A stretch of DNA of 64,000 nt from Bilabrum cf. latius (lineage: Eukaryota): NCBI GenBank assembly GCA_965178125.1, contig OZ237773.1, positions 434,001 to 498,000 on the forward strand, in the 5' to 3' direction. A model generated the notes under the pieces. That model was not told the DNA's origin. It made no database searches and saw only the letters and a list, made by a program, of their open reading frames with translations. Both the position numbers and the translations under genes were made by a program. Below are positions 898 to 63,865 of the stretch, piece by piece (position 1 is the stretch's first letter; each line of letters starts with the position of its first letter).

Positions 898-3800
898 TCA
901 GCGTGCCCGGCTGCCCGAACGAGACCGAGAGCGCCGCCTCGTTCGACGCGACCTCTCCTAGCTAGTAGCATGTCCACCCACCGATGGGCCACCCTGCTGC
1001 ACCTGGCGCTCAGCGGGCACAGGCGCTTGCGCAGCAGCTGCAGAGCTGCTGGCAGCTCCTGATGCACTCGCCGCTCTAGGGACGTCGCCCCTCGGGGGCG
1101 ATTCCCACCGCTTGCGGGGCGGCGCCTCATCCTCCCCCCCTCGATCGCCCCTGCGCTGCCATCTCGGCTGCTTGTCACCCCCCCTCCAGTCTCGGCCCCT
1201 GTCATCACCATCTCTGCGCCAGTCCCTCCCTCGTTCATCTCCACGCGACCAACGCCCCCGATCCGCTCTGTCTCCGCCCCACCGATCTTGCCCCCGGCCT
1301 CGCCCATCCCCTCCCCACCTGTCCCTTCTTTCCCCACCCCTACCCCCCCGCCGCTCCTCCCCCCTGGGAGCGTCCCCCCCGCCCTCTCCCGCCCCCCGCC
1401 GCCTCACCATGAGCGCCTCCTCCCTAGCAGCCTCGATCTCACGCTGCGAACGGCCCTCCTCCCGCCTGCGCTTCGCCTCCAGCGCGGCCCGTCTCGCCCC
1501 GCCGATCTCCTCCCGCACCTCCTTCGCCTCCAGCGCGGCTCGTCTCGCCGCCTCTAGCTCCCTGTCTTCCTCCTCGCCCGCACCCCTCGCCCCATTCGGA
1601 GACGCACTCCTGCTGCGGCCTCTCCTGCCCTCCCTCTCGATCTAGGCGCGCCCCCGCCTCTTGTCCGCGAACAAGTCATCGCCCTGCCCCTCGCCCTTGC
1701 CCTCACCCTCGGCCTCGGCTCGATCATTCTTACCACCCCGAGCCCCATCCTGGCCGTCGGTCACTATGCCACCTCTCTCGGTCCTACCCCGCTTCTTGGG
1801 AGGTGCGCCATCCTACCCTCGCCACGGCCTGCCTCCGGACCTGCCCTTCGACCTCGACCTCGAACTCGACCTCGACCTAGATCTAGATCTAGACCTAGAC
1901 TCTGACGATGACGGAGACCTGCTTCTGCCCCTTCTTCTGCTACCTCCACCATCCCGTGGTGGACTCCTCCTACGCTTGGAACCTGCCACCGGCCTGCCCC
2001 TAGAGTCGCCGTGAGACGCTGATCTTGACCTGGATCTTGACCGCGAGTCAGGTGCTGACCGGGACCTCGATACCGAACCAGACCCAGCAGATCTGGAGCT
2101 GCTTGCAGATCGCCTGCCTGCTTTCCTGCGGGCTCTCGGGCTGCGGCCCCTGCTCCTGCTCCTACTGACACTGCTCCTGCTGCTGGCATCTGTGCTTCGA
2201 CTGTGGCTCCGCGACCTGCTTGAATAGCTCCTGCTCCTGCTCCCGCTCCCACTACTGCTCCTGCTCCGGCTCCCACTACTGCTCCTGCTATCACTGTAGC
2301 TTCTGCTCCTGCTGCGGCCACGTCGCCTCGCTGCTCCCCTGCTACGTGGACTACTCGATCGGGTGCTCCTGCTACCTCTGCTCCTGCTCCTGCTCCTACT
2401 CCTGCGCCTGTTCCTGCTCCTGCCACTGCTCCTGCTGGAGTAGCTCCCCGCGCTTGACCTCGACCCGGATCGCGACCTCGACCGAGAGCTGGAATAGCTA
2501 CCGCTTCGGCTGCTCCTCGTGTAGCTACTTCTGCTGGATCGGCTGCTACGAGACCCGCTGCTCCTGCTGTAGGACCCGCTCCTGCTCCTGCTCCTGCTTC
2601 CGCTTCCGCTTCCGCTTCCGCTTCCGCTCCCACTGCCCGCACTGCCCGACCGCTCCCTGCTCCCACTCCTGCCCCTCCTCTTCCTCGCCGCTTCCTCCCT
2701 GAGCCGGTCTGCCTCGGCCTTCTGCCTGGCGGCCAGGATCTCCGGGAGCTTCAGCAGGTAGGCGCGCATGCCTTCGGTGAGCCAGCCCAGGCCGATCCTC
2801 GTGTAGAAATTGATGGCGAACCGCAGCTGCCTCGGGTGGTCCTTGGGGAACAAGCCGCTGAACGGCTCTCTCATCGACGGGTCCGCCAGCCTCGCCTGCA
2901 GCGTGGCCCTGCCCATGTGCGTGAAGATCTCTTGGAAGACGACCTTGAGGAAGATGCGCTTGCTCGAGTTGGTGCCTTCCTGCGTGAGCTTGACCACTTC
3001 CAGCGCCGTCCAAGGGATGGCGTCCGTGTGCAGGAGGAAAGCGAACAGCTTGGCGACGTTCCTCAGCTGCCTCGTCTCTAGCCTGTGGCAGCCCTCGTAC
3101 TGGTCGCCCAGCGCATCCACGCAGCACTGCTGGTACTCCTCCCCGAGCAGGCAGAACCGCTGTGCCAGCAGGCCATAGAACCTCTGGAATGTTCTCGCCT
3201 GCGCGCTGCTCTCCACGATCATGTTGATGACCTCTCGCTCCAGGCCCGCGCGCAGCCGCAGCTGCATCAGCTTGTGCGCCGCCTCCTCGAAATCCATAGA
3301 GCTCTGGATCGTGAGGAAGATCTTCCTCCGCAGCTGGATCAGCTCGGTATCAGTCAGGTCCGTCACCGCCACGGGCCCCTCCTCCCCCGCGCCACTGCCG
3401 CTGCCGATCGGCACAGTGTCTGACAACCCGGCACCGGCACCGGCACCGGCACTGGCACCGCCGGATGGCCCACCTCCAGCAGACGCCGACGATGACGACG
3501 ATGACCCGTACGTTGCAGCAGCAGCTGCTGCCCCTGCCTCTGCACCTTCTTCCTCTTCGTCCTCATCGCTGTCCGAATCCGATCCACTGCCCGAGGAATC
3601 TGACCCCGAGGACGAATCCGACGAGTCGGACTCCACCTCCTGCCCGAAGATCTCTGCCCGGATGCGCCTCCACAGCGACTCGTTCTCCTCGTACTGATCG
3701 TCCGCTCGGAACACGTCCAGCTCGTCGTGCTTGGCCAGCTTCTGGTCCAGGGTCACTTCGTGCGTGATCTAGTCGTCTGCCTCCACCAGGTCCAGCTCCG

Positions 3801-4980
3801 GCAGCCTCGCCGGGAATCCCTTGAACCCGTCCCTCTGCGCCTCCATGAGCGTCTCCACCGTCACCTGCACGCGCATGTCCAGCCCGCGGCCCGCACCCGC
3901 CCCCGTGCCCCGAAGGATGGCCCGGAACTGGGACATCACGTCCAGGAGGCCCTTGGGGCACTCTTCCTTGAGCAGCTGTCCGCACTCCCGGGTGAAGTGC
4001 ACTGCGATCTCGATCGAGTCGTCCGTGCCCCCCTCCAGCAGCAGGGCCAGCACCTCGAGCGCAAGCAGCTCGTCCGCCACCCTCTGGTTGGCCAGATGCG
4101 CGATGAAGCGAGACAGCGCCATCGCAACCGTCTTGTTGCTGCGCCTGTAGGCTCGCCTGAAGAGCAGCACCACCCTATGGAGCAGAAGCTCGCCGATCTC
4201 CGGCAGCTTGGTGTTGACTACCGCTGCCAGCGCGGCGTAAATATGCGTGAATCCAGGGGAGGCCATCTGCGCTTTCATGAGGGCGCGGACCAGCAGCCCC
4301 CTGCCGCGGACTAGGTTCAGCTGCAGCAGCTGCGGCAAGATGCTGGCCATGTTGGACACGTTGGCTCGGTTCACCAGGCCGTTGATCCCGCGCCGCAGAC
4401 GCTCCCACCGCACCCGCTGCATCGCCTCTGAGCTCTTGGGCAGCTCCGCGGCCATGGCGCGCTCCTACTGCTTGCGCAAATGCGGAGGCAAGTACACCCC
4501 GCCGGCGCGCCGGATTGTGCCGAGACGCGGCCCGTCCGATGCGGCCATCGAGCTTGCCGCGGCAGCACGGCCAGCTCGCTCGGCCGGTTGTGCTCCCGCA
4601 GTTTCACTAGTTGCGACCTTCTCTTGCATCGGAGCAGAAGGGTCAATTGCTTCTGGGGCAACCTCGCCCTCCTCTTTTTCGTCCGCGCTCGACGCGCTCG
4701 CACCCGCAGCCTGCGCCGGTGCAGAGGACTATGTAGCAGGGTTACCGCCGGTCGCAGCCACATCCTTTGTCGCAGCCGCCCTCTTGGCATTGGAATCGCC
4801 AACATCATCCTCATTGTCCGATTCTGTATCTGTAGCAGTCGCATCCGAGTCAGTATCGCTCCCATCGTCCTCCGATCGCGGGATGTCAGGTTGCTACTCA
4901 TCCTATGCTTCATTAGACGAATTGATCTTTGGCGCATCCGCAGCAGAAGTGGGGGGATTAGACTCTTGTTGATCACTCAT
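898..4980 (-). CDS. CWC22: Pre-mRNA splicing factor CWC22 (MIF4G + MA3 domains, long RS-rich tail), ~1360 aa with TAG=Gln
   Basis: Single frame from ATG 4980 to TGA 900-898. Motifs GGVYLPP, WERLRRGINGLVNRAN, NLVRGRGLL, AQMASPGFTHIYAAL, LRRKIFLTIQSSMDFEEAAHKL, RFAINFYTRIGLG. Eight in-frame TAG (4905, 4896, 4731, 4467, 3771, 1815, 1644, 960). LDLVEADD*ITHE matches the conserved EEDQITH. Confidence 0.93.
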
Positions 4981-5688: not shown

Positions 5689-6104
5689 TCACCCATCCTT
5701 AAATGCCGCCTGGCTAGCTTCTTGCAGCTTGGCCAGCTGTTCCTTCTATTCATCGTTCAGCTCGTCAACAGCAGAGGCATCCAATTCTTGCCCTATGCTG
5801 CCATGCACAGACTGCTCCTCAACTTTCTCTGCGTAACCCTCCCACTCGGCAAAGAACTGGGGCAAAAAATCAGGTTTGGCGTTCTTGTGCCGTCTCCACT
5901 CATCCCTGTGTGCGTCAAATAATAGGACAGATGCATTGCTGATTCCGCGATGACTTCGCTACAGTGTCAGCAAGCACAGTTAGTCCAACCACGTCACCCT
6001 ACTTACTTGACATAAGCGTCTCCAATCGAGCGCAAGTGGGTAGGAAGAACGGATTTGTGCAATCGCAATATTCTGCGATACAAACTCAGGGCCTTGGATG
6101 CCAT
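5689..6104 (-). CDS. SDHAF3: Succinate dehydrogenase assembly factor 3 (ACN9/Sdh7, LYR family)
   Basis: MASKALSLYRRILRLHKSVLPTHLRSIGDAYVK, then intron 6006-5906 (GTAAGT..CACAG), then DEWRRHK..FFAEWEGY..LNDE*KEQLAKL and TGA 5691-5689. TAG 5748-5746 lies in the family DEQxxQL motif. Confidence 0.88.
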
Positions 6105-6257: not shown

Positions 6258-8316
6258 ATGAACTCGCCTCATCTGAGTGCAGCCATGTCACCAGGGTCTA
6301 GGTTGGAGAAGAGGGCCCTGCTGTTGAGCACAAAGTCCATGAGGGGCGAGTTGCAGAAGGAATTAGCCCAGCGGAGCCAACAGCGCGACCCCATGTTTTG
6401 GTGGAAGGTGGCACTCGTGGCACAAACTTTAGTGAATGTAGTTCTCTTTTCTGGGGTCATATACGGGTTCTCTCAGGTGAGAAACTACTGGAGAATGTGT
6501 TCCCACCAGGTGGGTTGGAACAGGACCCAAGAACCGTAGCTCGTTTCAATGCCTCACGCACTCACAAACATAGCATGCATGCATCGAGATCATTTATTCA
6601 TATGTTTTTGATGATAGTGACCGTTTCTGCTTGCAGGTGGAACTAATCTTGAAGGACTAGGGGGTGTATCAAAACAAGGACGGCTCGTTCGAAATCGTGC
6701 GATACAACACAATCATGACGATTGCATCCGCAATTACGGCGGGCTCTGGCCTATTCATTGGCATTGCTCTGGACGCTGTAGGCCCCCGGTGGATGATGCT
6801 TCTGGCCACAGTCGTCAGCGCGGCTGGCTGTTTCCTGTTCGGTTACCTCCGGAGCTACCTGCCTGGCTACTGCCTCTTTGCATTCGCCGGCATGACCACC
6901 CTCATATCGTCGTTCAGGGTGGGTTTTGTGTTCCCCGATAGACTGCCTCTCCTCATGGGCCTCGTGTCGTGCCTGTTCGACACGAGCGCCGTGGTGTTTG
7001 CCGTCTTCTACCAGCTGTACGCGGCCGGTCTCTCGATCGAGGTGCTCTTCTTGGGGTACGGGGTGCTGGGGGTGCTCTGCGGGGCCAGCACCTTCGTGCT
7101 GTGGACCGTCAACGGGAGCGAGCACGGTAAGGAGGACCCGGAACCGAATGGCGAGCGGTCCGGGCTGCTTGCAGGGGACGAGAGCAGCCACCGTGGAGGC
7201 GCGCAGGGGGGCGGCGATAACTCGAAGGGGTACGGAGGCACGGCTGCCGCGGAGCATGTGGGGGTCGGTAGGGAGCAGGAGGGCGTGGAGGAGGGGAACG
7301 TGGTGAGTGTGACGAGTGAGGATGACCTGGGGCTGGCCCCGGACCGCGACACCAAGCTTGACACCATTGGTGGCAAGGGGGCCGTTGGCGGGGGAGACAC
7401 AGTGGGGGGTGAGGGGGAGGGGGAGGACAGCAGGCCCATGAGCGTGAGGCAGAGAGCAATCCGATCCATGGTGCTGTGGGACCAGCTGCAGACGAGGGAG
7501 TTCCTGTTCATCTACGGGTTCTGCGTAGTGCTCATGCTGCGGACGAACCTGTACCTAGGCATGGTGCAGGATTTCCTGGCCTCGCTGGGGGACGAGGATC
7601 ACGGGGATGTGATCAGTGTGGCGACCGGATGGATCGTGCCCGCGGGGGTGATCTTCGTCCCGCTGATCGACATGGCGCTGGCAAGGGGTGGGTATGCCTT
7701 CTCGGCCTATGCGACCGTGCTGGTGGGGGTGGCGTACGGGGCACTGAGCTGCGTGCACTCTCTGTACCTGCAAGCTGCCACCGCCGTGCTGTTCACGCTC
7801 TACCGCGCCTCGCTGTTCTCTGTGGTGGCGGCGTTCAACGCGGACGTGTTCGGGCCCATGACGGTCGGCCGCATTTCTGGCATTTTGTACACGACCACAG
7901 CCCTGTTTATTTTGCTACAGAGGCCGCTGACCCAGCTGGCGCAGGGGCCGCTTGGAGACAACTACGTGCCCATCAACGCGGGGTTTACGGCGCTGGCCGG
8001 CTGCCTCTTGCCGCTCGTGTGGTGGATCTAGTGGACCTCGCCGGACATCATGCAGCAGCACACGGAGACTGGGAACGAGACGAAGGATAAGGAGAAGGAT
8101 AAGGAAGGGCGGGGTGGCCTTGGGGGATCTGCAGGCCTGTTGGAGGAGGTGCAGGACTAGGGCGAGGGACTGGGGCGGGACATCAGCATGGCGCTGGAGC
8201 ACCGGTTCAGGGACTCTGACGGTGCCGGTGGAGGGGCGGGCGGGAAGGAGCAGGAGATGGCCAGCCCTGCCTCCAGCTATGCCAGTGGGGGACGGCCGTC
8301 CGTGCTGAGCGACTGA
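6258..8316 (+). CDS. MFS transporter, SLC43/LAT3/FMP42-like
   Basis: ATG 6258, intron 6477-6636, ~12 hydrophobic segments, motifs SGVIYGF..LKD*GVY and GIALDAVGPR. In-frame TAG at 6658, 8029 and 8158; ends TGA 8314-8316. Confidence 0.8.
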
Positions 8317-9930: not shown

Positions 9931-11610
9931 ATGCGATTTATCGTTTCTTCGCTGGTGGCTCTCGCCGCCTGCTCGACGCTCAGTGTGCGCGGGCGACGAG
10001 CAGCAGGCCAGCAGCACCTTCGCGCTGGCTCTTCTTCGTCGGTCTCGCTCCACGCTCACAGCGGGGGTCATGAGCGCGACGTATGGCCTGCATACGTGTA
10101 CAAAGACAGTCGTGATACGGACTCCTGCGATGTGAGCGCCTTGGCCGCGAGGAAGCCGGCAAAGGGCGACAGACTCCGGAGAGGCGAGATTCTGCATTCT
10201 GCCGTGGGCCCACTCGGTAGCAGCACTCTGTCCAAGGATTCAACGAGTATGTGGCTCCGGGCTGACTGCTACCTGGACGTTTCTGGCAAGTTAAAGACGA
10301 CAATGAAAGTCGAGCGCGAACCAGAGGAGGCCGGCCACTGTGCACTGCTCCTGACGGATGCATCGTGCAGCACGCATGGAGACCTAGCAATCATCGACAC
10401 GGATACGGGCAAGTACCTCTGGCGGGTGGAATCATCTATCTTCACACCCGAGGTGGACACGCTTCTGGTCCAGGGGGATGGCAATGTCGTTCTCACTCAG
10501 GAAGGCGGGGAGGTGCTGTGGTGCACAGATCCCGGAGACTACCCCTTGAAGTCGATGTCGGGGTATTTCCACTTCGATCTGGAGGTGCGGGAGGACGTGC
10601 ACAGTCTGCACTGCGATGCAGGGGCCTTGCAGTCGTCGTACCACCAAGTGGCCGACGGCGACGTGCTGTCTCCGGGGCAGGTGCTGCGCGCTGGGGCCGC
10701 CCTGAAGGCGGGCGAGGAGGAGGGGGTCGAGCTGCACATGCAGGGAGACTGCAACCTGGTGGTGTACCGAGGGGGCAAGGACGTGTTTGCGACCAACACG
10801 AGGGGCAAGGGTACCGAGGGGAAGTGCGCACTCGTCATCACGGGGGACGGGTGCGACACCCAGGGTGACCTGGCCATCGTGGACAGCGCCTCCGGGCAGT
10901 ACATCTGGCGGGTGCCTACCTCGCTGATGGACCCAGGTGCAGATACCCTTCGTCTGCAGGGGGACGGGAATGCCGTCTTGTTCCAGTAGGGAGGTGCGAT
11001 CGCGTGGTCGGCAGGGTCGGCGGACCTGGATAGCCCTGCTGACGACGAGACCTTCGGCAATGGTCGCAAGACGGCGGCGCTGCAGGCGGCCATCGAAGGG
11101 GTGGTGCATCGCTGCGACCCCAAGTCGCTTGCTAAGCGACCTGCCGCCCGGGGGCTCAAGCTGTGGGACTCCGAGGTGCTGGCCATGGGGAAGTAGCTCC
11201 AGTATAACGCACACGGCTACACTAGCACTCTGACGGTGCAGGATGACTGCAACCTGGTGGAGACGAGAGATCACGGAGACATCAACTGGAAGACGGATAC
11301 CCGGAACAAGGCCCAGAAGTGCGCACTCGTCATCACAGGGGAGGAGTGCGACCGCACGGGAGATCTTGCTCTCGTGGACATGGACAGCGGGGCGTACCTG
11401 TGGAGCATCGACACGTCCTACATGTGGCCCACGGCCAAGGTGTTGGTGCTTTCTCGCATGACCACGTCGCTGCAACAGCAGGCTACGCTCGCCGATATCT
11501 GGTGGTCAGATAATTAGGATCCTTTCACGTATTCGCATCCTCCTGAGGGATATCCGCTATCCAAGTTCAGGAAGGCGTTTGCGTACTGGCGCAAGTCCCA
11601 GGACAAGTGA
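9931..11610 (+). CDS. Secreted bulb-type (GNA-like, mannose-binding) lectin-domain protein, copy A, 559 aa
   Basis: Signal-peptide-like N-terminus. Repeated QxDxNxV motifs (VQGDGNVV, MQGDCNLVVY, LQGDGNAV, VQDDCNLV). In-frame TAG at 10987, 11194 and 11515; TGA 11608-11610. Confidence 0.8.
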
Positions 11611-20850: not shown

Positions 20851-20915
20851 TCATGTCATGTCATGTCATGTCATGTCATGTCATGTCATGTCATGTCATG
20901 TCATGTCATGTCATG
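20851..20915. repeat. (TCATG)13 microsatellite overlapping the bZIP stop codon
   Basis: 13 perfect pentamer units read directly from the sequence. Confidence 0.95.
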
Positions 20916-33522: not shown

Positions 33523-33568
<46 letters not shown>

Positions 33569-47620: not shown

Positions 47621-48894
47621 TCACCTGCCCCCGTCAGCAGCGCCGCTCCCCCCGTCTTCCCCTCTCGCCTGTTCCTGTTCATGTACCTTCGCTTTTGCCT
47701 TGGCATTTGCCTGGGCCCCGAACATGGCCTGCAGCGAAGCGGAGCCCCCGGCCTTGGCGGCTCGAGAGGCCCGGGCGGAGGCATTGCGCTCCCGCTCTTT
47801 GACGCGGCTGGCAGCGCGGACTGCCTCCTCTCTGCGGTACAGTGCATTGCATTGCATTGCATTGCATTGGGGTGCAGGAGGGATGGGCGTTGGCGAATGG
47901 AACGGCGCACAAGCGAGAAAGCCAAGCGAGGCCGAGCAAATGAAGTGACGCCGTGTGGGCCGCTGTATGGACCGGCACTGCAGGCACGTCCCAATTGTCC
48001 CCGCCTGCTCCATGTGTCCTCGGCTTGACAACTCAACTCACGCGGCCTTGAGCGGGAGGTCCTCCCTCAGGAAATCGAGGGCCTGGTGTCGGCGGACTGC
48101 CCGTGCCACGTCTGCCTCGTGGACCTGTCTGCGCCTGCCGCTCGTGGCCTCAGTGGCGGCCCCTCTGGCGAGGCATTCCACAACGGATTCCTGCAGGGTG
48201 CATGGCATGGTACTGTCCAGAAAGAGAATGTGTGTCAAATGCCACTGGCAGAGGGGGTCAAGGGGCGAGCCGGTCGGGATCGGTGCTTCGACAGATGAGC
48301 GCCGCTGCTGCACTCTCTCACTGCTGCCTTCGCGAGCAAGAACACTGCTTCCTTCGAGACCGTCTTAACGTCTGCATCGGCTTTCAGGACTCGTTTGACA
48401 CGGGCGATCGGGAAAACAGTGGTGTTTTGCTCATCGCCCTGCACCGCCGCCGCAGAGGCTTTCACGACTGGGCCATACTTGGCCTCGTACTGCTTCATCT
48501 GCTCGGTGTACGACACCCGCATAACGTCTACCTCCTCTTGAAACTTCTGTGATTGATGGCCAAGAATGAATTAGGCCGCGTGCTCGGGTGTTACAGGCAC
48601 GCATGAAGTCGACCAAGTATGTTGATGCGAACTCACCGCTCGTGCAGCGTCATCGAGAGCCTTCCATTCAGCTCCAAGCTATTTTGCAACATCCGATACC
48701 CCAAAAGCTGCGTTAAACCGCAAAAATGTGATAGATCAGTGCATAAAAGGAGAAATGTAGCCACGAGATATAGAAAAATTGAAGAGTAGCTCACCAGGAT
48801 TGCTTTTCTTTACATCCTGCCTTCTAGTCGAGCAAAACAAGAAAAACGCTGTTGGTGGTTTCTTTGGCGGGGCAGGAGCCTCCGTTGCAGCCAT
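47621..48894 (-). CDS. HMG-box + NF-YC/DPB3/CHRAC-like histone-fold protein
   Basis: Five predicted exons: PKKPPTAFFLFC..VKKSNP / VSDVAK*LGAEWKALDD (HMG box), then FPIARVKRVLKADADVKTVSKEAVFLLAKAA / ..LDFLREDLP (histone fold). TAG at 48681-48679. Confidence 0.78.
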
Positions 48895-49101: not shown

Positions 49102-51147
49102 ATGGAGTTTTGTCCGTACGAAAAGATGCGGCACATCATCCCTAGGGGAGTCCCAGAATCCGCACCGTTCGCAGTGCTAGAAAAGATTCATGGTGCCAAC
49201 ATGTAGATTATCGCATCGCTGTCGGGCAGCGAAATTTCCATCGGATTTGCAAGTCGGAGGAAGCTATTGGCAGATGATGCGAGCTTCTTTGGATTCTAGC
49301 CGCTCGCAGCCAAGCTTCGCAGCCCAATGACTGCGCTCGCTAGAACCGTCCGGAAGGCCATGGCATCGGCCGGCATCGACATCGTTCAGGTATCTGCCTA
49401 TGGTGAACTGTATGGTGGTGTTTGGCCTCGGTCGCTTGGTGGCTCTGACAGGCACTGCCAGGCGGTCCAGACGAAGCCTCTCGTGTACTACTCGCCGGGG
49501 CACCACTGGAGCGGGTTCGACGTGACGGTGCATCTGGCCCCGGGAGAAGGAGAAGGAGAATCTGTTGTTGTGGGAGGGGCTACCGGGGATGGAAGTTCAC
49601 CTGAAGGCGCCGCGGACCCACTGGCAGCCTCGCTGGCAGGGGAGGGCAAGGCACTGCTGGGGACAGGAGCAAGAGCAGGGGCAGGGGCAAGAGCAGGGGC
49701 AGAGGCAGGGGCAGGGGCAGGGGCAAAGGGTGGCACCGCCGACTCCGACTCCGGTTCAGATACCGATTCCGAATCCGGCCGGCAGTTCCTGGACTGGCCC
49801 GTGGTGCGAGCCCTCTTCCGCCGGGCGGGCTTGCGGACCCCCCCTGTGCTGGCTGGACGAGCCACGCGGGGGGAGGCGGCCGGTTGGGAGCTGCCGATGG
49901 AGAGCCGGGTGCCTGCAGTGCACTGCGGCGGTGAGGGGCTGCCGGCGGACATCGAGGAGGGCAGGGACGCAGAAGGGGTGGTGGTCAAGTGCTGGGCAGA
50001 GCGGCCTGGGCAGGGGCTCCCCCTGGAGTGCAGGCGGGCGATGGCCAAGGAGCTGGCGGTGGAGCTGGGCGAGGGGGCTGAAGGGCGGGAGTACATGGCC
50101 GCGCTTGGTGTGAGGAGTGAGGGAGCGGCAGCGGCGGAGGCGCAACCAGCAGGTGGATCAGGAGCTAGTGACGCAGATGCTGACTCGGGCGCATCGGACA
50201 GCAGTGGGCACCGAGCCATCGCGCCGTGGTTGTCTGCCATTCTGGGCATGCGGCGGGGCAAGAAGCCCCCCGCCCGGATCGTGGCCAAGATCAAGTGCGC
50301 CCGCTTCGAGGAGGCGCACGGGGCGAGCTGGAAGGGGGCCGCTGGAAAGGGGGGGGTGTTCCCCGAGGGGTGCGGCCCCGACGTGGGGGGCACGGGTCTG
50401 GAACGCGATTTGCTGCGGGAGTGCACTCGGCGGCTGACCGATGGGCGACTGGGGGCGTGTCAGAGCAAGGTGGATGCCCCCCCTGAGGGGGCGCGGGGGG
50501 CGGTGCTGGGGGTGCTGGCGGGTAGGCTGCAGGACTTGGAGGAGAGGAGAGCGGCGAGGGCCAGGGGGCGGGGCAAGGGGAAGGGCAAGGGCAAGGGGAA
50601 GGGCAAGGGCAAGGGGAAGGGCAAGGGCAAGGGGAAGAAGGGGAGCAAGGCAGCTGGTGGCAGCGAAGGCACCGTCACTGGGCTGCGCGATGGTGCTGAC
50701 TTGGACGCGTTCGATGCTGCGGTGCGGGCGGCGGGGCCTCTCTCGGTGGAGGCCTGGGGTGCATCGCATGGCGGCGCAGAGGCGGGCGGGGGTGTATCGA
50801 GATGGGTGCACTGCATGGCGGTGGAGGTGGGCAGCGACCTGTAGGGGGAGCTGCTTGCGGGGTATCCTGGCGAGATGGGCAGGCTGCAGGGGGCGGAGGA
50901 GAGGGAGAGGGAGAGGGCGGGGGAGTTGGCCGGGGAGGAGGAGGAGGGCGTCGCCGGGGGTGATGCGGCAGCCGGGGAGGAGGGGGGTGAGGAGGGTGCG
51001 GAAGAGGCACCGTGGGTGCATGCCTGGCGGTCCATCGAGGAGGGGCTCCGGGGGGATGAGGGTGCGGGGCTGTCGCCTGCCCTCGCCAAGGGGATGGTGC
51101 TGCCGTTCTTGGAGGCACTGGCTGTGTACCTGGAGCCTGTGGAGTGA
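49102..51147 (+). CDS. Rnl2-family ATP-dependent RNA ligase-like protein, 681 aa
   Basis: Nucleotidyltransferase motifs in order: EKIHGAN (I), ASRR (Ia), YGELYGG (III), GFDV (IIIa), AEGVVVK (IV), AKIK..RFEE (V). TAG at 49204, 49297 and 50842; ends TGA. Confidence 0.8.
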
Positions 51148-51311: not shown

Positions 51312-53600
51312 ATGGCTTCTAGTAATGTAGATAAGCTGGAACGCGAGCTAGATGGTGCCTAGCCAGTCAAGATTGCATATCAAGGAGACCACTGCGGCAC
51401 TTCGGTGCTTCCTGGCCCTCCAAATGTTCGGAACATCATCATGTGTGAACTGTCGGAACGATTTGCTTATTATGGTATGAGAGCTATCCTGGTCCTATAT
51501 CTGGTAGACAAGCTTGGCTTCAGCGAGGCGCAAGCCACGGCTGCGTTTCTCTACTGGTCGGCTGTCTGCTACTTCGTCCCGCTGCTCGGCGGTATCCTAG
51601 CAGATTCGTTCCTCGGAAAGTACATGACTATCTTAAGCTTCACTGCGATATACTGGACGGGAACTGTGACTCTAGCAGTCTCTGCCCTCTTTGACAGCTC
51701 CGTGCTTGCCTTCTTGGGCCTTGCGTTGATCGCGCTTGGCACGGGTGGCATCAAGCCCTGCGTCGCCGCCTTTGGCGCGCTGCAGGTTCAGTCGCCTGCC
51801 TGGATCCGCGTGCTGCAGAAGCGTCGCAGGGACGCGGAGCCCGGTGAGGAACCCCCTTCGTCAGAGGAGGAGGAGCGCAGGTACTTTTCGGTGTTTTATT
51901 TCTCCATTAACACGGGGTCTGTCGTGAGCTACATCGTCGTGCCGTAGCTAAGGGAGCACGTCGGATTCCCTGCCGCGTTTGGACTGACGGCCGTGCTGCT
52001 GGGTGCCTCCTTGCTCGCCTTCTGGTGGCCCCGCCTCGAGTACCTCATGGACGAGCCCAAGGGCAGCGTGGTGGTCGAAGTGGGGAGGGTGATTTCGGCT
52101 GCCTGCGCCGCCCACCGCAGGAGAAGGGGCGCGTGCTGGTGCTGCTCCTGCTCGCGGGCAGACGACACCGGCTTGGACTCAGGCGCAGATGCAGCGGGCC
52201 AGCCCCTTCCCCTAGATGTCCCCAGCTCGGCCTCCTCCTCCTCCCCCTCCTCCTCCTCTTCTTCGGCAGCACCGGGCACTGGTTCGGGTGAGGCGCGCGG
52301 TGCCGCAGTGGTGGGTCTGGTGGACGCCGAGGCGGGCCAGGGAACAATTGCAGCGGGCGAGGAGAAGCGAGAGAGAGGAGTAGGAAGAGGAGGCTCCCCC
52401 GCGCACCCGCCCGCCGATGGATTTGTTCCCTCAGGTCGGGGCCAGCGCTCGGGGGCTCCGCAGCTGCCCACCACCATGTCAGCCTCTGGCCGTCTTGCTG
52501 CCCCGGCGCTCACTGACGCCTCTCCGCTGCTGCGCCCCACCACCGCGAGCGGAGGTGCATCGCACGGCAGCGCGGACCCGGTGCTGGCAGGCCGGCAGGA
52601 GGACGAGGAGCTGGCCCGTGAGCTGGCCTAGCACAGGGCCCGGCTGAGGGACCAGGCGGGCTGGCTGAACGCAGCGCGGGGCGAGATGCCCGACTGGCTG
52701 GTGGAGGCCACTGCCCAGGTGCTGCAGATCCTGCCAGTGCTGCTGGTGTTCATCCCCTTCTGGACTCTGTTTGACCAGCAGGGGGCCACGTGGACACTGC
52801 AGGCCAAGCACATGAAGCTGTACGGGCTGCAGCCGGACAACATCGGCGTGCTCAACCCGATGCTGTGCCTGGTCTTCATCCCGCTCTATGAGAAAGTGCT
52901 CGTCCCAGCCATGAACGCCTGCAAGCACGTCGTCCATGTCACTCCATTGCGGCGCGTTGGGGCCGGCATGCTGCTGGCAGCTGGCTCCTTCACCCTGGCC
53001 TACTTCGTGCAGCTGCTGGTAGACCGCTCCTCGGATGGTGAGGTGAGCGTGCTGCTGCAGGTGCCACAGTACGTCACCATCACCTTTGCCGAGATCCTGG
53101 TGTCACTCACCGGCCTGCACTTTGCATTCTCCCAGGCCCCCGCCAGCATGCAGGGGACCATCCTGGCCTTGTGGTACGCGGCCACAGGGCTAGGAGACTT
53201 GCTCGGTGGCGTGCTGTACACGGCCTTCGAGGATCTGCCCCAGTCCACGCTCTTCCTGATATGCGCGGGGCTGATCGCAGTGGCCTTCCTGGTGCACCTG
53301 GCAGTGTCCGTGCCGTACAAGCCCAGGCCCAGGCTGTCGGATCGGGCCCAGGAGCTGCTGGACAAGCAGAAGGAGGAGGAGGCCATGGAGGGCGGGCATG
53401 GAGGCATGGATCGAATGGAGGAGGACGGTGACGATGATGATGGAGAGAGCGTGTCTGGGATCTCAATGGCGGGCATGACACGCGGGGAGCGGGGGACTGC
53501 TGCGGGGGCGGGGCCGGACGCATCCCCGGCGTGGTCCGTAGGACGGGAGGAGGGGGGCGGGGACAGGGGCAGGGGAGGGTACGGCAGCGGCAGCGGGTGA
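51312..53600 (+). CDS. Proton-dependent oligopeptide transporter (POT/PTR, SLC15 family), 762 aa
   Basis: ELSERFAYYGMR (ExxERFxYYG motif), LADSFLGKY, GTGGIKPCV, FSVFYFSINTGS, FWTLFDQQG, SQAPASMQ. TAG at 51360, 51945 and 52629. Confidence 0.93.
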
Positions 53601-53790: not shown

Positions 53791-54729
53791 TCACCCCTTG
53801 GCCTCCCTGGCCCGCTGCCGAGTGCGCGCGGCCTTGTCCGCCTTCATCCTCTCGAGCCGCTGCTGCTGCTCCAGCTCCCTCTTGACGTTCTGGTAGCGCT
53901 GCAGCAGCCGCTCCAGTGCGATCTGCCGCTGCCTCTTTTGCTCACCCTTGCCCTACTGAATGCGTTTCTTGAGTGCCTCCAGCTCGAGCCTGAGCTTCTG
54001 CTTGAAGCGCATCTCCTTCTGGTACATGTCAGCCTGCCGCTCGTTGTTCCACTTCTCCTCCTCCCAGGACATCAGCTCGTCGGCTTTCTGCTTCATCTTC
54101 GCGGCTTCTTTGTAGTGTTTCTACTTTGCAAGCGTTTCCTGGATTTTCCTGAGCTCCAAGTACTCGCGCGAGTGCCGCGGGATGCTGCCTTTGGCAATGA
54201 GTCTCTGCTGGAAATCGCGCAGCTCTGCCGCATGCCTCTCCTTCATCGCGAGGATCAACTTCGCAGCATTTTCTTCGTATTCTGCCATCTTTTTGTCCCA
54301 AAGCAAATTGAACTGCTGAAATTCTAGCATGTGGGCCTCCTCAATGCCTAGCCGTTCCGCCAACTGCCTGGCACGAAGGGCCTCCCTCCTTCGGTTCTCT
54401 TCGTGCACCCGCAATTCATCCAGGCGTTTTCGTGCAATCTCGGCTTCAGTGTATTTTCCCAGTTTTTCGCAATTTCGTCTGTGCTCTTCCAAAATATTGA
54501 TGAAATCTTGCACAGCCTCGTCCTCGAACTCCAAGTCAGCAGCTGATCGGGCGGCACCTGTGCCACCCCCAGCCGGGTAGCTAGCTTGCATACTATACCC
54601 GGATCGGCCCATTGCGCTTGCACCCCCTGTGGCAGCCCCCCCCGAAGACACAGGAGGTAAAGCGACTGCGCCTGCAGACCCTCCTCCGCCGCCGTATGGG
54701 ACCATGTCGCCGCCACCGTACCTTGCCAT
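53791..54729 (-). CDS. Coiled-coil protein of unknown function
   Basis: Continuous heptad-like frame LEEHRRNCEKLGKYTEAE..QETLAK*KHYKEA..LLQRYQNVKRELE. TAG at 54123 and 53955. The TGA at 53793-53791 could instead be part of a splice donor. Confidence 0.7.
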
Positions 54730-54958
54730 AGAAACAATACCGATAAGTTACAGAAAATAGGAGCGTGGCAAAGATGCGAGTGGTTGATTACGATTTGTGG
54801 CGCAGTTGCAGCGTCGCCCGCGACCGGATTTGTGTGACAAAAGGCCACGCTACAAAGCCAGAAACTAGGCACGCTAGAAACATACCGGACCAGCCATATC
54901 TTCATTAAATTTGTATAGGATATCGTTCCTTTTACTGTTCTGGTGCGTGCTGGACGTC

Positions 54959-57900
54959 ATGAGCGGTTCCTTTGTGGATTTATTGAGCTTGGTTGCTCCA
55001 CTGCAACTGCGAGACCGACACACCGATGATTTCGAACCAGGAGCCTCAATCGTAACACTTGAGCAGCTGGATCGTGTCGACTAGTAGCTATCGCATGTAT
55101 GCTCCAGAGATTGCGATTGGCATGCAGGGGACGTGATGCTAGCGATGCCGGTGCCATCAGCCGTGTTGGCTGGTGTGGCCATCCTGCACCCCAGGACCCG
55201 ACCGCGCGTTGAATTGCCCGACCATCGCTCAACCTCACTTCAAACATCCGTGTGGGCGCGTCCCCCCGAATCCATGCGGTTGTCTAGCGCTGGCATGCTC
55301 CGAATGGCATCTTCCTCCCAGGTTCGTCCAGCTACTGCCATCGATGTGGAGCTGTGGGCCGGACAGAGGGAGCACCAGCGGGCCGATGCGCCTGCTCAGT
55401 ATTCACGAGTGCCATAGCTGGAGCGCCGCATCGCATGGACGGCTCTCCGGATGCTGCTGCTGGACCTGGTCCTGTGTCCCGGCTGCCTCGTGGCCCTCCC
55501 CTCCTCGCTGCTCAAGCGGGTGTGTCCGCGGCTGGAAGGTCTGCACATGGGCAGGACAGACGAGATTTAGTAGAGTGCTGGAGGTTCGAATGGGGCTGGT
55601 GGTGCCCGCGTGTTCGTTCGGGTCACTGGCGCCTCTCCGGGGCAGTCGAGGGGGGCAGGAGGCGGGATGGGGATGGTGAGGGTAGGGCGGGACACTTCGG
55701 TGCTGTACACTAATAGGAGCGCTGGGGGGGTTCATGCAGAGGGTGGTGAAAGAGGCAGCACCACCACATCATCATCATCATCACTATCGTTGTTGTTAGC
55801 ACAGGCTCCTCCTTCCATGTCCCGGGCCTGGGACCCGATGGCTCCATCGACTGCCGTGGTGGGGCTGGCAGAGCCCTTGGCCCGTATGCGGGCGCTGGCA
55901 ATGGGTCCGCTGATGTGGGGCCGCAGATTGTTGCCACCACACTTGCTCCGAGGTAGACCACAGCACGTACCGTCTTGCACTGCACTTGTATCTGGGCCTG
56001 CGGGGAGTGGGAAATCGGCTCTTATCCGAGCCATCGCGAATGAGGCATGGGCGCTTGGAATTGCTGTGCGACTCGTGACGGTGCAGTGCGCTGCACTCAT
56101 GGGAGGCCGCATCGGGCAGGCTGAGACTGCCCTGACCCGGGCCTGCAAACGGGCTGCAGCGTTCCTGGAACACTGTGGGACTGGAGGGGCGGGCGCTGGA
56201 GCCGAGGCAGCACCGGTGGTGGTAGGGGGTGACACCAGTGGAGCGGGCGGGAATGCAAGGGATAGGGAGGATGTGACAGGAGGGTGGTGGCCCCTGGGTG
56301 CCAGCGTGCCCACTCGTCACGATCGAGGAGGGTCAGGCTCAGGGTCAGGCTCAGGGTTTGCCTGGGTGCATGCCGCATTCCCGTCAGACGGTGTGGTGGT
56401 GGAGGACTTGGTGCCTAATTTGCATGGGGTGGGTCAGAAGCAGGGGCAAGGGTAGTCTCCAGTGGATGGCCCGAGGCTGTCCATGCTGGTGCTGGAGGGC
56501 ATCGATGCGATCGCTCCCACCGGGCTGGGCAGCTGCCTGGCAGCAGTGGACTCCCCCCAGGCAGCGGCAGCCAGGGCCAGCGTAAGGCTGGTGCAGCTGC
56601 TGCGGGGTGCCAAGGCAATGGCGCGCATGCACCACCGTGAGAGTGTTGGGGCGGTTGGGAGCAGGCAGGGGGAAATGAAGGCCATGGCCGAGGAGACGCT
56701 GGATCGACTGCTGGCTGCTGCCCACGGTATTCCCGACGGAGGTGTGACGAGTGCGGCCAGTGGTCGACCTTCTCCCGGTCAAGGGTCGCCAATGTCCGTG
56801 TTTGCGGGCCTGGATCCTGCCGGAGACGCGGCTGCAGATCCAGTGGGGCGGTGGGAGCACCTGCAAGAGGAGGGCAGTGCCTGGCAGCAACCAGCGGAGG
56901 AGGGCAGTCGTGGCATGGACGGTAGGAGAGGGGCCGAGGCAGAGGATGCATCGGGTGAATGCGACGAGTGGGCCTCACAGCAACTGAGACACATGGCGGT
57001 ATTTGCCACAGCCCGTGGAGCACAGGAAGTGGCACCACTGCTGCGCGGGCAGGAGGGGCTGGAGGAGGCCGTGGAGCTGCCCGCCATGGGCCCGGACGAG
57101 AGAGCAGAGGCCCTCGTGGTGTTTGTAAAGAGGGGTTGCGTGCGGGGGAGTCGGGGTGGGGGAGGAGGAGATGGAGATGGGGGTGATACTATGCCTCCCG
57201 GTCTCGAGGCGTGGCTCCGATCGTTTGCGGCCTCGCTGTCGGGGTACAGCGCGGCGGAGCTGAAGGCCCTCGCCGCTGCTGCCCTCAGGAGACACCAGGG
57301 GGGAGAGAATCCGAGAGAGGGGGCTGGCGGGGGGGCTGGCGGGGGGGCTGGAGGGGGGGCTGGAGGGGGGGCTGGAGGGGGGGCTGGCGGGGGGGCTGGT
57401 CGAGGAGAAGAACAAGAAGCCGATGGTCCACACCGCGGTGTAGAAGGCGAGAGCGAGAACGACGGCGAGAACGAGGGTGAGGAAGGGAGCTGGCTTGACT
57501 TGCTGGATGAGGCCGGGCCAGTGGCAGCGGGCGGTGACACCGACCTGCCTGCAGGAGCTGGACACGTAGATGATGCAACAGGTCCTGCATCTCTTTGGCC
57601 AAGCCGGGACGCATTTGAGACGGCCGCCGCGCACGACGTGCGCCCCGCAGGCGTGTCGGCGTTGGGGCGTGGGGTATCGGCCGTGTCCTGGTCCTAGGTG
57701 GGCGGCGTGCGCGGGCTTAAAGAGGCCGTGCAGAGGGCGATCGAGTGGCCCGTGCGGCACCGGGGCATCTTTAAGCTGCTTGGGCAGAGTCCACCCCGCG
57801 GGGTGCTGCTGTTTGGGCCTCCAGGCTGCTCCAAGACTCTGCTGGTGCGGGCTGCGGCGCAATCGGCCCGCGTGCCATTCTTCTCTCTGTCCGGCGCCGA

Positions 57901-58807
57901 CGTGTTCTCCAAGTACGTGGGTGAGACGGAGAGGACGCTGCGGTCCATCTTCCGGCGGGCCCGGGAGGCGGCCCCCTCGGTGCTCTTCTTCGACGAGGTG
58001 GATGCGGTGGTGGGCGGCAGGGCGGGGGCGGGGGCGGGAGGGGGCAGCGGGGAGTCGGACGGGGGTGCGTCCGCGGGCGTGCTGGCCACGTTCTTGACTG
58101 AGCTGGATGGGGTCGAGCAGTCTGACGGTGTGACGGTGGTGGCGGCCACGAACAGGCCCGAGCTGCTGGATGCTGCCCTGCTGCGGCCCGGGCGACTCGA
58201 CCTGAGGCTCATGGTGCTGCCGCCCGAGGGGGCCGCCGAGCGACTCGAGGTACTGCGGGTGCACTGCACGAAGCTGCCCCTGGACGAGGACGTTGACCTC
58301 AACGAAGTGGCCGCTGCCACGGCGCGCTTCACGGGTGCAGAGCTGGCTGCAGTGTGCAGGGAGGCGGGGCTGGCGGCGCTGCGCAGGACCATTCGGGAGA
58401 GGGAGTCAATGGAAGGGCAGGGGAGCGAAGAGGGTGCCAGTGTGACGAGCGCTGGGAAGCCGTGGGCAGACCTCGCTGCTGGTGTGACGAGTGAGAGGGG
58501 TGCAGATGAGCAGGCAGCCACGGCAGTGGGCCCCCCATCGGTTCGGCGGGAGGACTTTCAGCAGGCGATTGAACGGTCAGCTCCACTGTTCGGGGGCCCC
58601 GGGGGAGAAGCCCGTCTCAGGGCCGAGGTGGCGCGACTGAGGCGGTTCCAGGCGGGGGATGCGGGGGGTGCAGGGGGGCCGGGTGTGAGTGCCATGCTGG
58701 GGGAGGCGGGGGTGGCGGCAGGGGGAGCGGTCGGGGCGGGAGCTGGTGGATCTGGAGCGGATGAAAGTACGCAGGGCAACAGCAAGGGTGAGGGTGAGGG
58801 TGAGGGC

Positions 58808-58842
<35 letters not shown>

Positions 58843-58921
58843 CGAGGCCGCAGCACCATCCGGCTCGTGGGCAGCTGTTGCCCGAGGCGATCCTGGAGAT
58901 GGAACAGACCCCTGGGCATGA
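54959..58921 (+). CDS. Double-AAA ATPase, CDC48/AFG2(SPATA5)-like, with degenerate first AAA module, ~1320 aa
   Basis: D1 GPAGSGKS..LVLEGID; D2 VSWS*VGG, GVLLFGPPGCSKT, LFFDEVD, AATNRPELLDAALLRPGRLD. The GCSKT Walker A resembles AFG2/SPATA5. Seven in-frame TAG. Confidence 0.8.
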
Positions 58922-59798: not shown

Positions 59799-60472
59799 TC
59801 ATGCCTTTATGGCAGCCGATGCAGTGGAGTCCTCGAGCTTGTTCATCTCCAGCACGGCGGCGAGTACCTCGGCGTGGGATGTCTCCAGCACCATGCCGCC
59901 CATCACGATCTCATCTAATATGTAGTGGACCTTGTCGCTATGGAAAATCACATCCAACTCGCACACGTTCTCGAAGCACTTGTCGAGAGTTTCTACGAAC
60001 ACTGCGAAGGGAAGGGGGGGGGATCACGAAGACACACATCGTTCTCGTGGCAAGCGGATCGTCCGGAGGCTTCCGCGCAAGATGTGCAACGTTCGAGACT
60101 CACCCTGCACCAAATCCAAAATTCCAAGCTCGGATTCGTTAGTGTCTACAGCAAACACAAAATAAAGAGTCGCATAGTGTCTGTAGATAAGCTTGACATC
60201 CTTGCCCCACTCGCTCAACGATCCACCCTCCAAGAAGTTGCACACAGAATCCGTGCGCTTTGATAGAAGGGTGTAAATTTCACGAACCAGCTTCTGCTGA
60301 GTAGCTTGATCCTGCGAAGCGGAAGGTGCTGAGCTGAAATCCAAGGCAGACGATGATGCAAGCAGCACGCAGCCGCCGGGGCTGTAGCATCGATCAAGCT
60401 CACAAATCGGTCGTAGCACTTAGTCAAGCGGGCTTTCCCGTGCGTATTAATGATATAGATAGCTCGGATCAT
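59799..60472 (-). CDS. AP3S: AP-3 adaptor complex sigma subunit
   Basis: MIRAIYIINTHGKARLTK, SKRTDSVCNFLEGGSL, KLIYRHYATLYFVFAVDTNESELGILDLVQ, VFVETLDKCFENVCELDVIFH. Two introns; no TAG. Confidence 0.92.
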
Positions 60473-60600: not shown

Positions 60601-61725
60601 ATGAGCAGGTGCTACCGCGCTTTTCTTGGCAGACGACTAGTTCACCATAGGTTCTCGCTGGCACGTCAGCGATTGCCGTTGGTGCCCTCCAAAAGATGTT
60701 TCCGAACGAGTGCAGCTCGAAGTGAAGACGGCTCTGAATCAAAAAGAAGCGCTCCGCAAAGCTGGTGGGAGTCATTTACGGGGCCTGTATTGCCCAAAGA
60801 AGACGAAAACGTCACTCAGGAGAAGCAGCGCAAGATGAAGGTGCTTCGCGACAGGCTGTTCCACAGCAGACTATCAGATGCCATGTCTACATCACAATGG
60901 AAGCTCGGTGTCGCGCAAAGCGAAATAGTGTCGGTGGAAGAAGCACCCGAGTTTCCAGAGATAGCGGTGGAGCCATTGGAATCATCAGGAGACCAAAGCG
61001 CGTTACACTTCCCGAGCGTGGCGAATGGACACGTCACTATAGTCACGATCGGGTTCCGTGGCGCCGCCAGGGAGCACGTGGAGCCCGTGCACGATGCGAT
61101 CATGGAGGCGTTCGGACAGCTGGAGCCCATCTCGGGCGTGTCACCCCTTGCGGCAGCAGCCCCCTCCCCCTCCCCTTCTCCCACCGTGGCCCTGCTGGAC
61201 CTGCAGTACCTCGACAGCGCCCCCCTCTCCTGGCTCAGGCGCATGATCAAGCCCGGCATGCTGGAGGCACTGCGCCCTTCCATCCGACCGTTCGCGTACA
61301 TCTGCCCCCAGGTGCGGGAGGATGTCACCGAGGACGTGCTGGCCTCCCTGGGCATCCACAACCGGGCCATCGGGTGGGTCTTCCTGCTGGACACAGAGGG
61401 CAGGGTCAGGTGGACCATGCACGGGGAACCGGAGCAGGACGAGCTGGTGGCCGCAGTGCAGTGCACCCAGATGCTGCTGCGAGGAGAGACGGGCACAGGG
61501 TCCCGCCCCGAGGCGCCCCCCACCGAGAGCGGGTTCTCGGGCACCGGTGCTGCCACAGCTGAGGAGGAGCAGCAGGAGGAGCAGGGGCAGGAGCAGGGGC
61601 AGGAGCAGGGGCAGGGGGGGGCATCCACCACGGGTGGCACATAGATGCATCCTTCTGGTACAGAGGAGGTCGAGAGGCCTGGCACCTCCACTGGCAGTGG
61701 CTCTCCTGCTGGTAAGGTCGTGTGA
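60601..61725 (+). CDS. ATP10: Mitochondrial ATPase assembly factor ATP10-like
   Basis: Arg/Ser-rich presequence-like N-terminus and LGIHNRAIGWVFLLDTEGRVRWTMHGEP. With TAG 61642 read as Gln the frame ends at TGA 61723-61725. Confidence 0.78.
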
Positions 61726-62662: not shown

Positions 62663-63865
62663 TCAGCTAACGACGCATCTCCGATTGGCCGTCGCTGCTC
62701 CCTCCACCGGCTCAGCACTAGCGGCAGAGGCAGCAGAAGCAGTAGTAGCAGTAGCATCTGCGGCATTGCCCCCTGAAGAGTCGCTCCGCGGTGGGGCTTG
62801 AGCAGGAGCAGGAGCTGCATCCTCACTGGCTGTGCCGGCCGAGACCTAGATGGCTCCGAGCACCAAGGCACCTGCAGAAAAGGTCACAGCCTGTGGGGCC
62901 ATCATGGGCATGTAGTCATCAATCAGTTTCTTCAAAGATGCCATGAACCCGTCCTCTTCAGTCGCATCCATGGCCTGGGCAAGATTCGGCGGAAGCATCG
63001 CCACGAAGGCCAGCAAGCTCACCGCTTGCTTCCACAGCGGCCAGCACGCGAACGAATGCAGCTGCCCGATCGCGATTGCCAGCAGCAGTGCGTCCGCGAA
63101 GGGACGGAATGATACTACCCGCGACAGACCAGTCATTCTCTCGAACCAGTCCACGGCCCCGCCCTGCGCCCGCCTCACCGCCGCCTTGGCGCGCCGCAGC
63201 AGCCCCCACACAGCCCCGACAACTCCCCTCGTCTCGGTCTCCTAGCGCACCCCAGCGTCGTCATCTAAGCCATGGCGGCTGGGAGGAGTCATGATGGCCA
63301 CGACGAGTGCGAGATCGGCGGGCAGCGCCACGACGGGCTCGCCTGAAGAGAGCACACCGACAGCCCCGGCTGCGCCCGCCCGTACCTCGGGGTCGGCGCC
63401 CTCGCTGTCACTGTCGCTGCCCCTGCCGTCATCGTCGTCCTCCGCCCCTTGTCGTGGGGCGGGCGGCTGCCTAGAATCGGAAGCGGAGAGCTGGGCCGCA
63501 ATGGTCCTAGCCAGGGGGGCGACCTTGGCCAATATCTCCTCAATCGGGTCCGAAGCCCAGAACGTGCGGTGCGAAGGGTCCACCTCCATGCTTCGGGAGT
63601 GCCTGCAGGCAGCAACTAGGTCTCTGGCACTGCTCCCGTGGCGTTTGCTAGCCGCGATTGCGTCTCCCAGGGCCAGGTTCGCCCAAAGAAGCGACTTCCG
63701 CCATAACGGGATGGAGGTCAGGACATGGACCGCCAGATGGGCGTCGGCCACGTGGGCTGCGAATGAACCGTGCACGGCTGGCGTCCCATCCAATGCGGGC
63801 ACTGAGGCAATCATGTGGCACACGATCATTGCAGCGGCAGCCGCCACGATCCGGCCAGCCGCCAT
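62663..63865 (-). CDS. Hypothetical membrane protein
   Basis: Track ORFs at 63242 and 62846 are one frame joined over TAG (63244, 62848) and end at TGA 62665-62663. Hydrophobic N-terminus and TM-like segments. Start is uncertain. Confidence 0.5.

Follow-up and report, generated by a model that had tools for sequence, protein, structure and literature searches.

The window analysed here, a 64-kb stretch of Bilabrum cf. latius DNA (contig OZ237773.1, positions 434,001 to 498,000), is 63% G+C and carries eukaryotic genes whose reading frames are interrupted by TAG triplets, the subject of this report. Pfam searches recognized nuclear eukaryotic families, namely a CWC22-like protein (MIF4G and MA3), Tfb4, a POT/PTR2 transporter, an AFG2/SPATA5-like double AAA ATPase and an RNA ligase, together with an OSCA/RSN1-like channel, an MFS transporter, a bZIP factor, two B-lectin paralogs, ATP10, a PITH protein, PCI-domain genes, an AMP-binding acyl-CoA synthetase and a clathrin-adaptor sigma exon (Table 1). 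Under the standard code the window breaks into many medium-sized open reading frames (ORFs); with TAG read through, it yields long ORFs, the largest of 1,512 codons. As described below, TAG is beyond reasonable doubt a sense codon in the window, and glutamine (Gln) is its most likely meaning.

We built 19 gene models with TAG open, so that they are free of internal TAA and TGA by construction. Their 14,192 codons include 55 in-frame TAG, and at least one occurs in 16 of the 19 models, which end with TGA in 18 cases and with TAA in one (the AlkB-like gene, 20552). Two further ORFs contribute three coding TAGs, two from a coiled-coil protein (54123, 53955) and one from a LYR/SDHAF3-like exon (5748). 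TAG 44890 was removed from the count because it lies inside an intron defined by RNA joints, and TAG 5961, judged by the bases around it, is probably a 3′ splice acceptor; after these corrections the coding total is about 57 TAG in 21 genes (54 in the 19 models, plus 2, plus 1). Pfam matches span TAGs or lie downstream of them in the CWC22-like protein (MIF4G and MA3), Tfb4, PTR2, AAA with its lid, and RNA_ligase, and likewise in RSN1_7TM, MFS_1, bZIP and ATP10. Tandem TAG-TAG pairs occur three times (55082/55085, 55568/55571 and 35363/35360). We also applied a coding-flank test that is independent of the gene models, in which a codon-usage measure that had seen no stop triplets in training scored the 50 codons before and the 50 after each stop triplet of either strand. 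The two flanks were both coding and open for 31 of 697 TAG, as against 2 of 1424 TGA and 1 of 305 TAA, and each of the three TGA and TAA cases is antisense to a known gene or in another of its frames. The first-pass annotation of this DNA had counted ~65 TAG in 20 genes; the observation stood up, and the number itself gave way to the recount above, which is close to it. It had further stated that homology continues on both sides of the TAGs in conserved genes, that essential parts (among them the CWC22 MA3 domain, the Tfb4 zinc finger and parts of the PTR, AAA and ligase genes) lie across them, and that tandem pairs are found at 55082, 55568 and the end of the OSCA gene, all of which agrees with the Pfam matches, the flank test and the pairs just listed.

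Table 1. Genes, exons and introns of the window, with the positions of in-frame TAG triplets.
Feature	Coordinates	Strand	In-frame TAG	Remarks
CWC22-like splicing factor (MIF4G, MA3)	898..4980	-	4905, 4896, 4731, 4467, 3771, 1815, 1644, 960 (n=8)	long RS-rich tail; ends TGA
LYR/SDHAF3-like exon	5692..5979	-	5748	Complex1_LYR_2 21 bits, below cutoff 22.3; TAG 5961 probable acceptor of a 48-nt intron (GTAAGT...CTAAC...TAG), read from the sequence
MFS transporter	6715..8316	+	8029, 8158	ends TGA
B-lectin repeat protein, paralog A	9931..11610	+	10987, 11194, 11515	
B-lectin repeat protein, paralog B	15269..16948	+	15806, 16535	
AlkB-like 2OG-Fe(II) oxygenase	19332..20552	+	20280	weak Pfam match, 24 bits, cutoff 31.2; sole TAA-ending model of the 19
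bZIP protein	20906..22642	-	22546, 21961	21961 closes a nine-Gln run (PQQQQQQQQQx)
Ankyrin-repeat, low-complexity protein	23961..27368	+	24393, 26454, 26745	
TFIIH subunit Tfb4/p34	29966..31120	-	30475	residue 216, upstream of zinc finger
Lineage-specific WD-like protein, 1053 aa	31238..34399	+	31571, 31682, 32033, 32132, 32828, 33092, 33332, 33515, 33584, 34010 (10 TAG)	
PITH-domain gene, last exon	34548..35069	-	none	ends TGA
OSCA/RSN1_7TM-like channel	35340..39878	-	37490 (GSGxQQ), 35543, tandem 35363/35360	
Large helical protein	41357..44826	-	43621, 41809	first 24 codons of the model (to 44899, with TAG 44890) fall in an intron
Spliceosomal intron	44827..44921	-		by RNA joint; GTGAG...CAG
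Intron	44985..45087	-		by RNA joint
Intron	48190..48320	-		by RNA joint
Intron	48547..48636	-		by RNA joint
Intron	48708..48794	-		by RNA joint
RNA ligase (PF09414)	49102..51147	+	49204, 49297, 50842	
POT/PTR2 peptide transporter	51312..53600	+	51360, 51945, 52629	
Coiled-coil protein	53791..54747	-	54123, 53955	without family assignment
Double AAA ATPase, AFG2/SPATA5-like D2	54959..58921	+	55082/55085, 55415, 55568/55571, 56453, 57695	
Intron	60002..60103	-		by RNA joint
Intron	60311..60402	-		by RNA joint
ATP10 (mitochondrial ATP synthase assembly)	60601..61725	+	61642	
Membrane-like protein	62663..63982	-	63244, 62848	without assigned function

Wherever RNA pieces cover them, the TAG triplets persist in RNA. 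Public sequencing runs were mapped on 41700-61699 (20 kb); runs X1 to X4 are DNA-like, and X5 to X7, from two other studies, hold part of the window sequence. Contigs of X5 to X7 skip seven minus-strand stretches of 87-131 nt bounded by GTGAG...CAG, and DNA run X1 reads through them. Because GT..AG joints are present in X5 to X7 and absent from X1, we infer that X5 to X7 hold spliced RNA; none of the runs is recorded as RNA, and the run annotation gives the RNA nature of X5 to X7 as a guess only, with X5 'probably DNA'. The listed RNA pieces cover 8 of the ~57 TAG sites, and at all eight (43621, 49204, 49297, 51360, 51945, 52629, 53955 and 54123) the contigs carry TAG unchanged. The PTR2 gene is covered in X5, X6 and X7 from 51299, some 13 nt before its ATG, to 53468-53477 with 0 other letters, and the same three runs keep both TAGs of the coiled-coil ORF; a contig of X7 (49057-49392) covers the first two TAGs of the RNA ligase gene, near its 5′ end, and one of X5 (43484-44764) covers that in the large helical protein gene. 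Only two differences were seen over the mapped 20 kb, at 47160 and 57593, neither of them at a TAG, and DNA run X1 shows 0 other letters relative to the window. Since contigs with spliced joints keep TAG unchanged, both editing and splicing are excluded at the eight covered sites. The examination of mature mRNA for UAG that the first-pass annotation had proposed therefore gave unchanged triplets at 8/8 covered sites, the RNA nature of the runs being deduced from the spliced joints. In X5 alone there is also a plus-strand GT..AG joint of 246 nt (45992-46237), and RNA-contig depth is highest over the clathrin adaptor sigma gene at 59.6-60.4 kb.

We then translated TAG as X and read the opposing residue in homologues, paralogs and relatives. 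The clearest column is residue 404 of the CWC22-like protein (TAG 3771, in DDxITHE), where Gln is found in 119 of 120 homologues, with no glutamate (Glu) or leucine (Leu), and also in the solved human and 8xi2 chains. Between the two lectin paralogs, 83% identical, TAG faces CAG at two sites, TAG at one and CAT at one: TAGs 10987, 11194 and 11515 of paralog A stand opposite CAG, TAG and CAT of paralog B, while TAG 15806 of paralog B stands opposite a CAG of paralog A that encodes the Gln of a repeated LxQGDGN motif (LVQGDGN), and TAG 16535 is the shared one. A pairing test over three ortholog pairs and the paralog pair (binomial, with a Gln background of 2.8%) gave 5 Gln, 1 His and 2 TAG as partners of TAG where 8 or more of the 16 neighbouring positions were identical (P = 1e-7); looser columns, with at least 6 identical neighbours, gave Q5/S3/R1/E1/H1 (P = 7.5e-6). 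Genuine Gln stands opposite Gln in 70% of such columns. By BLOSUM62 likelihood Gln leads Glu by 7.5 bits on 8 sites or 4.3 bits on 14 sites, and Leu is outside the best six. Pfam scores with TAG set to Gln, Glu or Leu were 48.8/47.7/46.3 for RNA_ligase, 19.8/19.6/17.8 for B_lectin and 93.1/92.9/92.9 for Tfb4, and two TAG are located within poly-Gln runs.

For Tfb4 TAG 30475 we infer a conserved Gln site, partly from a hand alignment that sets it against the second Gln in 'LLQQACDITGG' of human p34; with the Tfb4 of a relative (L001, below) HMMER proposed a different alignment, and PDB local alignments of Tfb4 skip the site. A PDB search with the RNA ligase gave one distant match, with TAG opposite G and H; a PDB search with the coiled-coil ORF found no match, and neither did a Pfam search with the B_lectin fragment around lecB-180. 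The first-pass annotation had placed TAGs at family-conserved Gln sites in both CWC22 (3771) and Tfb4 (30475). The former is firmly so, and the latter appears to be. TAG was further expected to stand opposite Gln more often than opposite any other residue, which is what we see, with exceptions at PTR2-212, CWC22-172 and AAA-913. Taken together, these comparisons support Gln as the best single meaning of TAG.

Related DNA appears to use TAG in the same way. A representative search with the WD-like protein returned four fragments of a close relative with 75-95% identity, of which three (P0293, P0295 and P0296) come from a single 11-kb contig. The end of one fragment falls directly before the window's TAG112 (31571), so under the standard code the relative too has a stop at this site, and Gln is found at TAG619. 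Public predictions of the WD-like ortholog (P0293-P0296, P0299, P0301 and P0444-P0446) are fragments of 71-331 aa bounded by in-frame stops. A metagenome contig, L001 (1-7771, 7.8 kb, 52.8% G+C), with about 45% protein identity to the window, has the same gene order, Tfb4, WD-like gene and PITH, and its three ORFs (1,429 codons) contain 13 in-frame TAG, 22 CAG and 17 CAA, with no TAA or TGA. In well-aligned blocks, TAG of L001 stands opposite Gln of the window three times (AYDG..xL, LEDxCYVLR and xLFSGIIDS), and the Tfb4 site 30475 is TAG in both. These alignments indicate that the UAG reassignment predates this species and is used also by the close relative and by the L001 lineage. Within L001 Tfb4 we counted 6 TAG versus 2 CAG and CAA together, so TAG may be the major Gln codon in that lineage.

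Several observations weigh against a plain reading of UAG as Gln, and a number of them bear on the identity of the residue. At PTR2 residue 212 (51945, an RNA-verified UAG, in P-x-L-R), homologues have I78/L13/V9/M8 and Gln in 0 of 120. This hydrophobic column is a real exception, for which a lineage-specific substitution is the sole account we offer; we cannot explain it otherwise. CWC22 residue 172 stands opposite L76/M36, where a one-residue shift would give a Gln of human CWC22. Residue 913 of the AAA protein (W-S-x-V-G-G) falls in a column where 53 of the 71 domains aligned have Asp; in single-AAA proteins, which are possible orthologs, it varies (A, D, H, R), and the full-length search gave homologues at the level of D2 only, so 1 of the 7 TAG sites of this gene has an alignment column. 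Summed hmmbuild emissions over four columns (CWC22-404, PTR2-212, CWC22-172 and AAA-913) place Ala and Leu 2.5 bits above Gln. The Pfam PTR2 score is highest with Leu (124.3/124.7/125.5 for Gln, Glu and Leu), as is that of LYR (21.0/19.9/23.5), although the latter includes the probable splice-acceptor TAG. Finally, the close relative has Glu at TAG149, TAG266 and TAG925 of the WD-like protein, two of which (266 and 925) lie in acidic low-complexity, poorly aligned stretches. One might suppose from the two hydrophobic columns that UAG means Leu, or from the acidic AAA column and the three Glu sites that it means Glu; its decoding might also be ambiguous. We regard such readings as quite unlikely, given the absence of both residues from the CWC22-404 column, their rarity opposite well-aligned TAG (Leu 0/11, Glu 1/11) and their BLOSUM likelihoods. 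Recoding of the pyrrolysine or selenocysteine type was rejected on the Gln pairing and on the ~57 sites, which have no sequence context in common.

A different concern is which stop codons changed, and how completely. Were UAG and UAA both Gln (NCBI table 6), TAA might be missing from the genes only through GC richness; TAA is indeed scarce overall (309 of 128,000 triplet positions on both strands) and ends just 1 of the 19 models. The test, over the 64-kb window and the 7.8 kb of L001, argues otherwise: in-frame TAA numbers 0 of 14,192 codons (in models that exclude it by construction), whereas about 11 would be expected if it meant Gln (from 55 TAG and CAA:CAG = 82:394), and the 1 of 305 TAA with coding flanks is antisense to a gene. 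Because L001, in which A-ending codons are common (CAA:CAG 17:22, at 53% GC), has 13 TAG and 0 TAA, and its PITH gene ends with TAA where the window has TGA at the orthologous place, the code is a UAG-only variant and not table 6, a rival we hold to be very unlikely. TAA remains a stop, and the earlier statement that TAG alone was reassigned, with TAA and TGA kept as terminators, fits the 18 TGA and 1 TAA gene ends and the lack of in-frame TAA. Two placements speak for a dual UAG, Gln inside genes and terminator near some 3′ ends, with a context dependence like that of Condylostoma: the OSCA tandem TAG 35363/35360 lies five codons before TGA, and in L001 Tfb4 a TAG immediately precedes TGA. 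UAG may accordingly keep some stop role near gene ends; as a general account we think it unlikely, as 19 of 19 models reach TGA or TAA with none needing TAG as a stop, and in four further genes (CWC22, ATP10, lectin A and MFS) between 19 and 51 codons separate a TAG from the gene end. The standard code could be saved only if the TAGs were bypassed by U-to-C editing, splicing, leaky readthrough, pseudogenes or sequencing error. One TAG (44890) is indeed intronic and another (5961) a probable acceptor. This rival is nonetheless refuted at the eight sites that are unchanged and unspliced in runs with spliced RNA, and the agreement of DNA run X1 with the window, the ~57 sites in 21 genes including the essential CWC22 and Tfb4, the three tandem pairs and the same pattern in two relatives leave it scarcely credible elsewhere. 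A last point on the opposing side is that ARAGORN found no tRNA in the window or L001, and neither holds an eRF1 gene.

We therefore favour, with a probability of roughly 0.85, nuclear DNA in which UAG is read as Gln and UGA (mainly) and UAA are terminators, a code which we take to be NCBI table 15. Of the overall claim of the first-pass annotation, that TAG encodes Gln, the use of TAG as an ordinary codon is confirmed, and Gln is supported as its most likely meaning. By analogy with published codes, UAG but not UAA would be decoded by a GlnRS-charged tRNA that carries the anticodon CUA, and eRF1 would have lost or weakened its recognition of UAG. Two published accounts describe how a CUA-anticodon tRNA pairs with UAG, not UAA, and how eRF1 domain 1 is often altered (PMC5304391, PMC11687900). 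Both genes had been placed outside the window, in keeping with the ARAGORN result and with the lack of an eRF1 gene there; an Rfam scan of the window likewise returned no family.

The host is a gene-dense, intron-poor, aerobic eukaryote. Giant-virus and organelle origins were considered and are ruled out by the spliceosomal introns and the CWC22 and TFIIH genes. Conserved proteins of the window share only 40-57% identity with their nearest database relatives from outside its own clade; the best-scoring named matches are to oomycetes, Aurantiochytrium, Ochromonas and Cafeteria, with one EukProt transcriptome recurring and no ciliate protein among them. A quick single-gene CWC22 tree put the window on a long unplaced branch, and a stramenopile affinity, suggested by these matches, is only a lead. 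Tentatively, and at somewhat less than even odds, we picture a deep, poorly sampled clade of aerobic protists, of 53-63% GC and conserved gene order, in which UAG alone came to mean Gln, in an event separate from those of fornicates and ciliates and long enough ago for the Tfb4 TAG to be shared across orthologs of about 45% identity, and whose public predictions are systematically broken at TAG.

Several repeats lie among these genes. The lectin paralogs belong to a tandem segmental duplication with a unit of about 5.3 kb, comprising a PCI-domain gene and a B-lectin repeat gene (8322-12381 and 15203-18493); its matches are 9866-12371 versus 15203-17705 (90.4%), 8322-9746 versus 17066-18493 (97.4%) and 8322-8971 versus 11728-12381 (92.7%), and paralogs A and B differ by 92 nonsynonymous and 40 synonymous codon changes. 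Just past the stop of the AAA gene, at 58870-59444, is a perfect tandem array with a 57-bp period and 100% self-identity, which gives a spurious DUF7640 match on the minus strand; depth in DNA run X1 rises there. The RNA ligase gene contains a (GKG)n-coding microsatellite (50371-51037) where depth reaches 392-816 in all four runs, versus about 10-70 nearby, with many loose ends; the repeat is common to other loci.

In full-text literature, from which subscription journals and supplements were outside the search, we found no report of UAG as Gln in a GC-rich eukaryote that is neither ciliate nor fornicate; one candidate preprint for a prior report concerned Tetrahymena only. The code itself is already known, if from only a few protist lineages, and the carrier lineage described here is probably new. 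What is added is that the code is common to a clade whose members keep synteny and have one TAG site in common, and that TAG truncates the public predictions for this clade. Codes that split UAG from UAA are rare and test ideas on why the two are coupled (tRNA wobble, eRF1 constraints); an independent case in a GC-rich genome with UGA as main stop, if true, would widen the conditions for UAG capture. There is also a practical side. Because standard-code annotation truncates most genes of the lineage, as seen in the relative's public proteins, which are fragments ending at TAG, table 15 is needed when genes are called, completeness is estimated or phylogenomic analyses are run on its genomes and metagenome bins.

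Reading both UAR codons as Gln (table 6) is known from many ciliates, hexamitin diplomonads, ulvophytes and Amoeboaphelidium, and some ciliates read UAG as Glu. The UAR codes resemble that of the window in turning a stop codon into Gln and differ in that TAA is not sense in the window or L001. Codes in which UAG means Leu, in the rhizarian exLh and in phyllopharyngean metagenome-assembled genomes from TARA, or Ser, in Scotinosphaera, are closer in one respect, since there too UAG and UAA have parted in meaning and a tRNA(CUA) has been found or is to be expected (PMC11687900, PMC5304391); they differ in the residue, neither of which the window supports, two hydrophobic columns aside. Cases described in those accounts with UAG alone as Gln include Iotanema, Protocruzia tuzeti and two phyllopharyngean lineages (PMC11687900, PMC5304391). 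The ciliates among these have the same codon table as the window, and 78-84% of their genes contain an internal UAG (PMC11687900), compared with 16 of 19 models here, or 15 when the intronic 44890 is excluded. Their genomes are 27-54% GC with UAA as the preferred stop (PMC11687900), whereas the window is 63% GC with TGA, and it differs also in being multi-gene contiguous DNA with GTGAG..CAG introns of 87-131 nt. The fornicate Iotanema spirale is alike in that only UAG is reassigned, to Gln, with UAA kept as a stop, and in that UAG accounts for a small share of Gln codons, about 8% there and about 10% in the window; its description also gives an eRF1 change, T32G, in the GTS motif (PMC5304391). 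It is, however, an anaerobic endobiotic metamonad whose primary stop is UAA (PMC5304391), in contrast to the 63% GC and main stop TGA (18/19) of the window, whose host is unlike Iotanema because aerobic mitochondrial assembly factors (ATP10 and the LYR/SDHAF3-like protein) are present.

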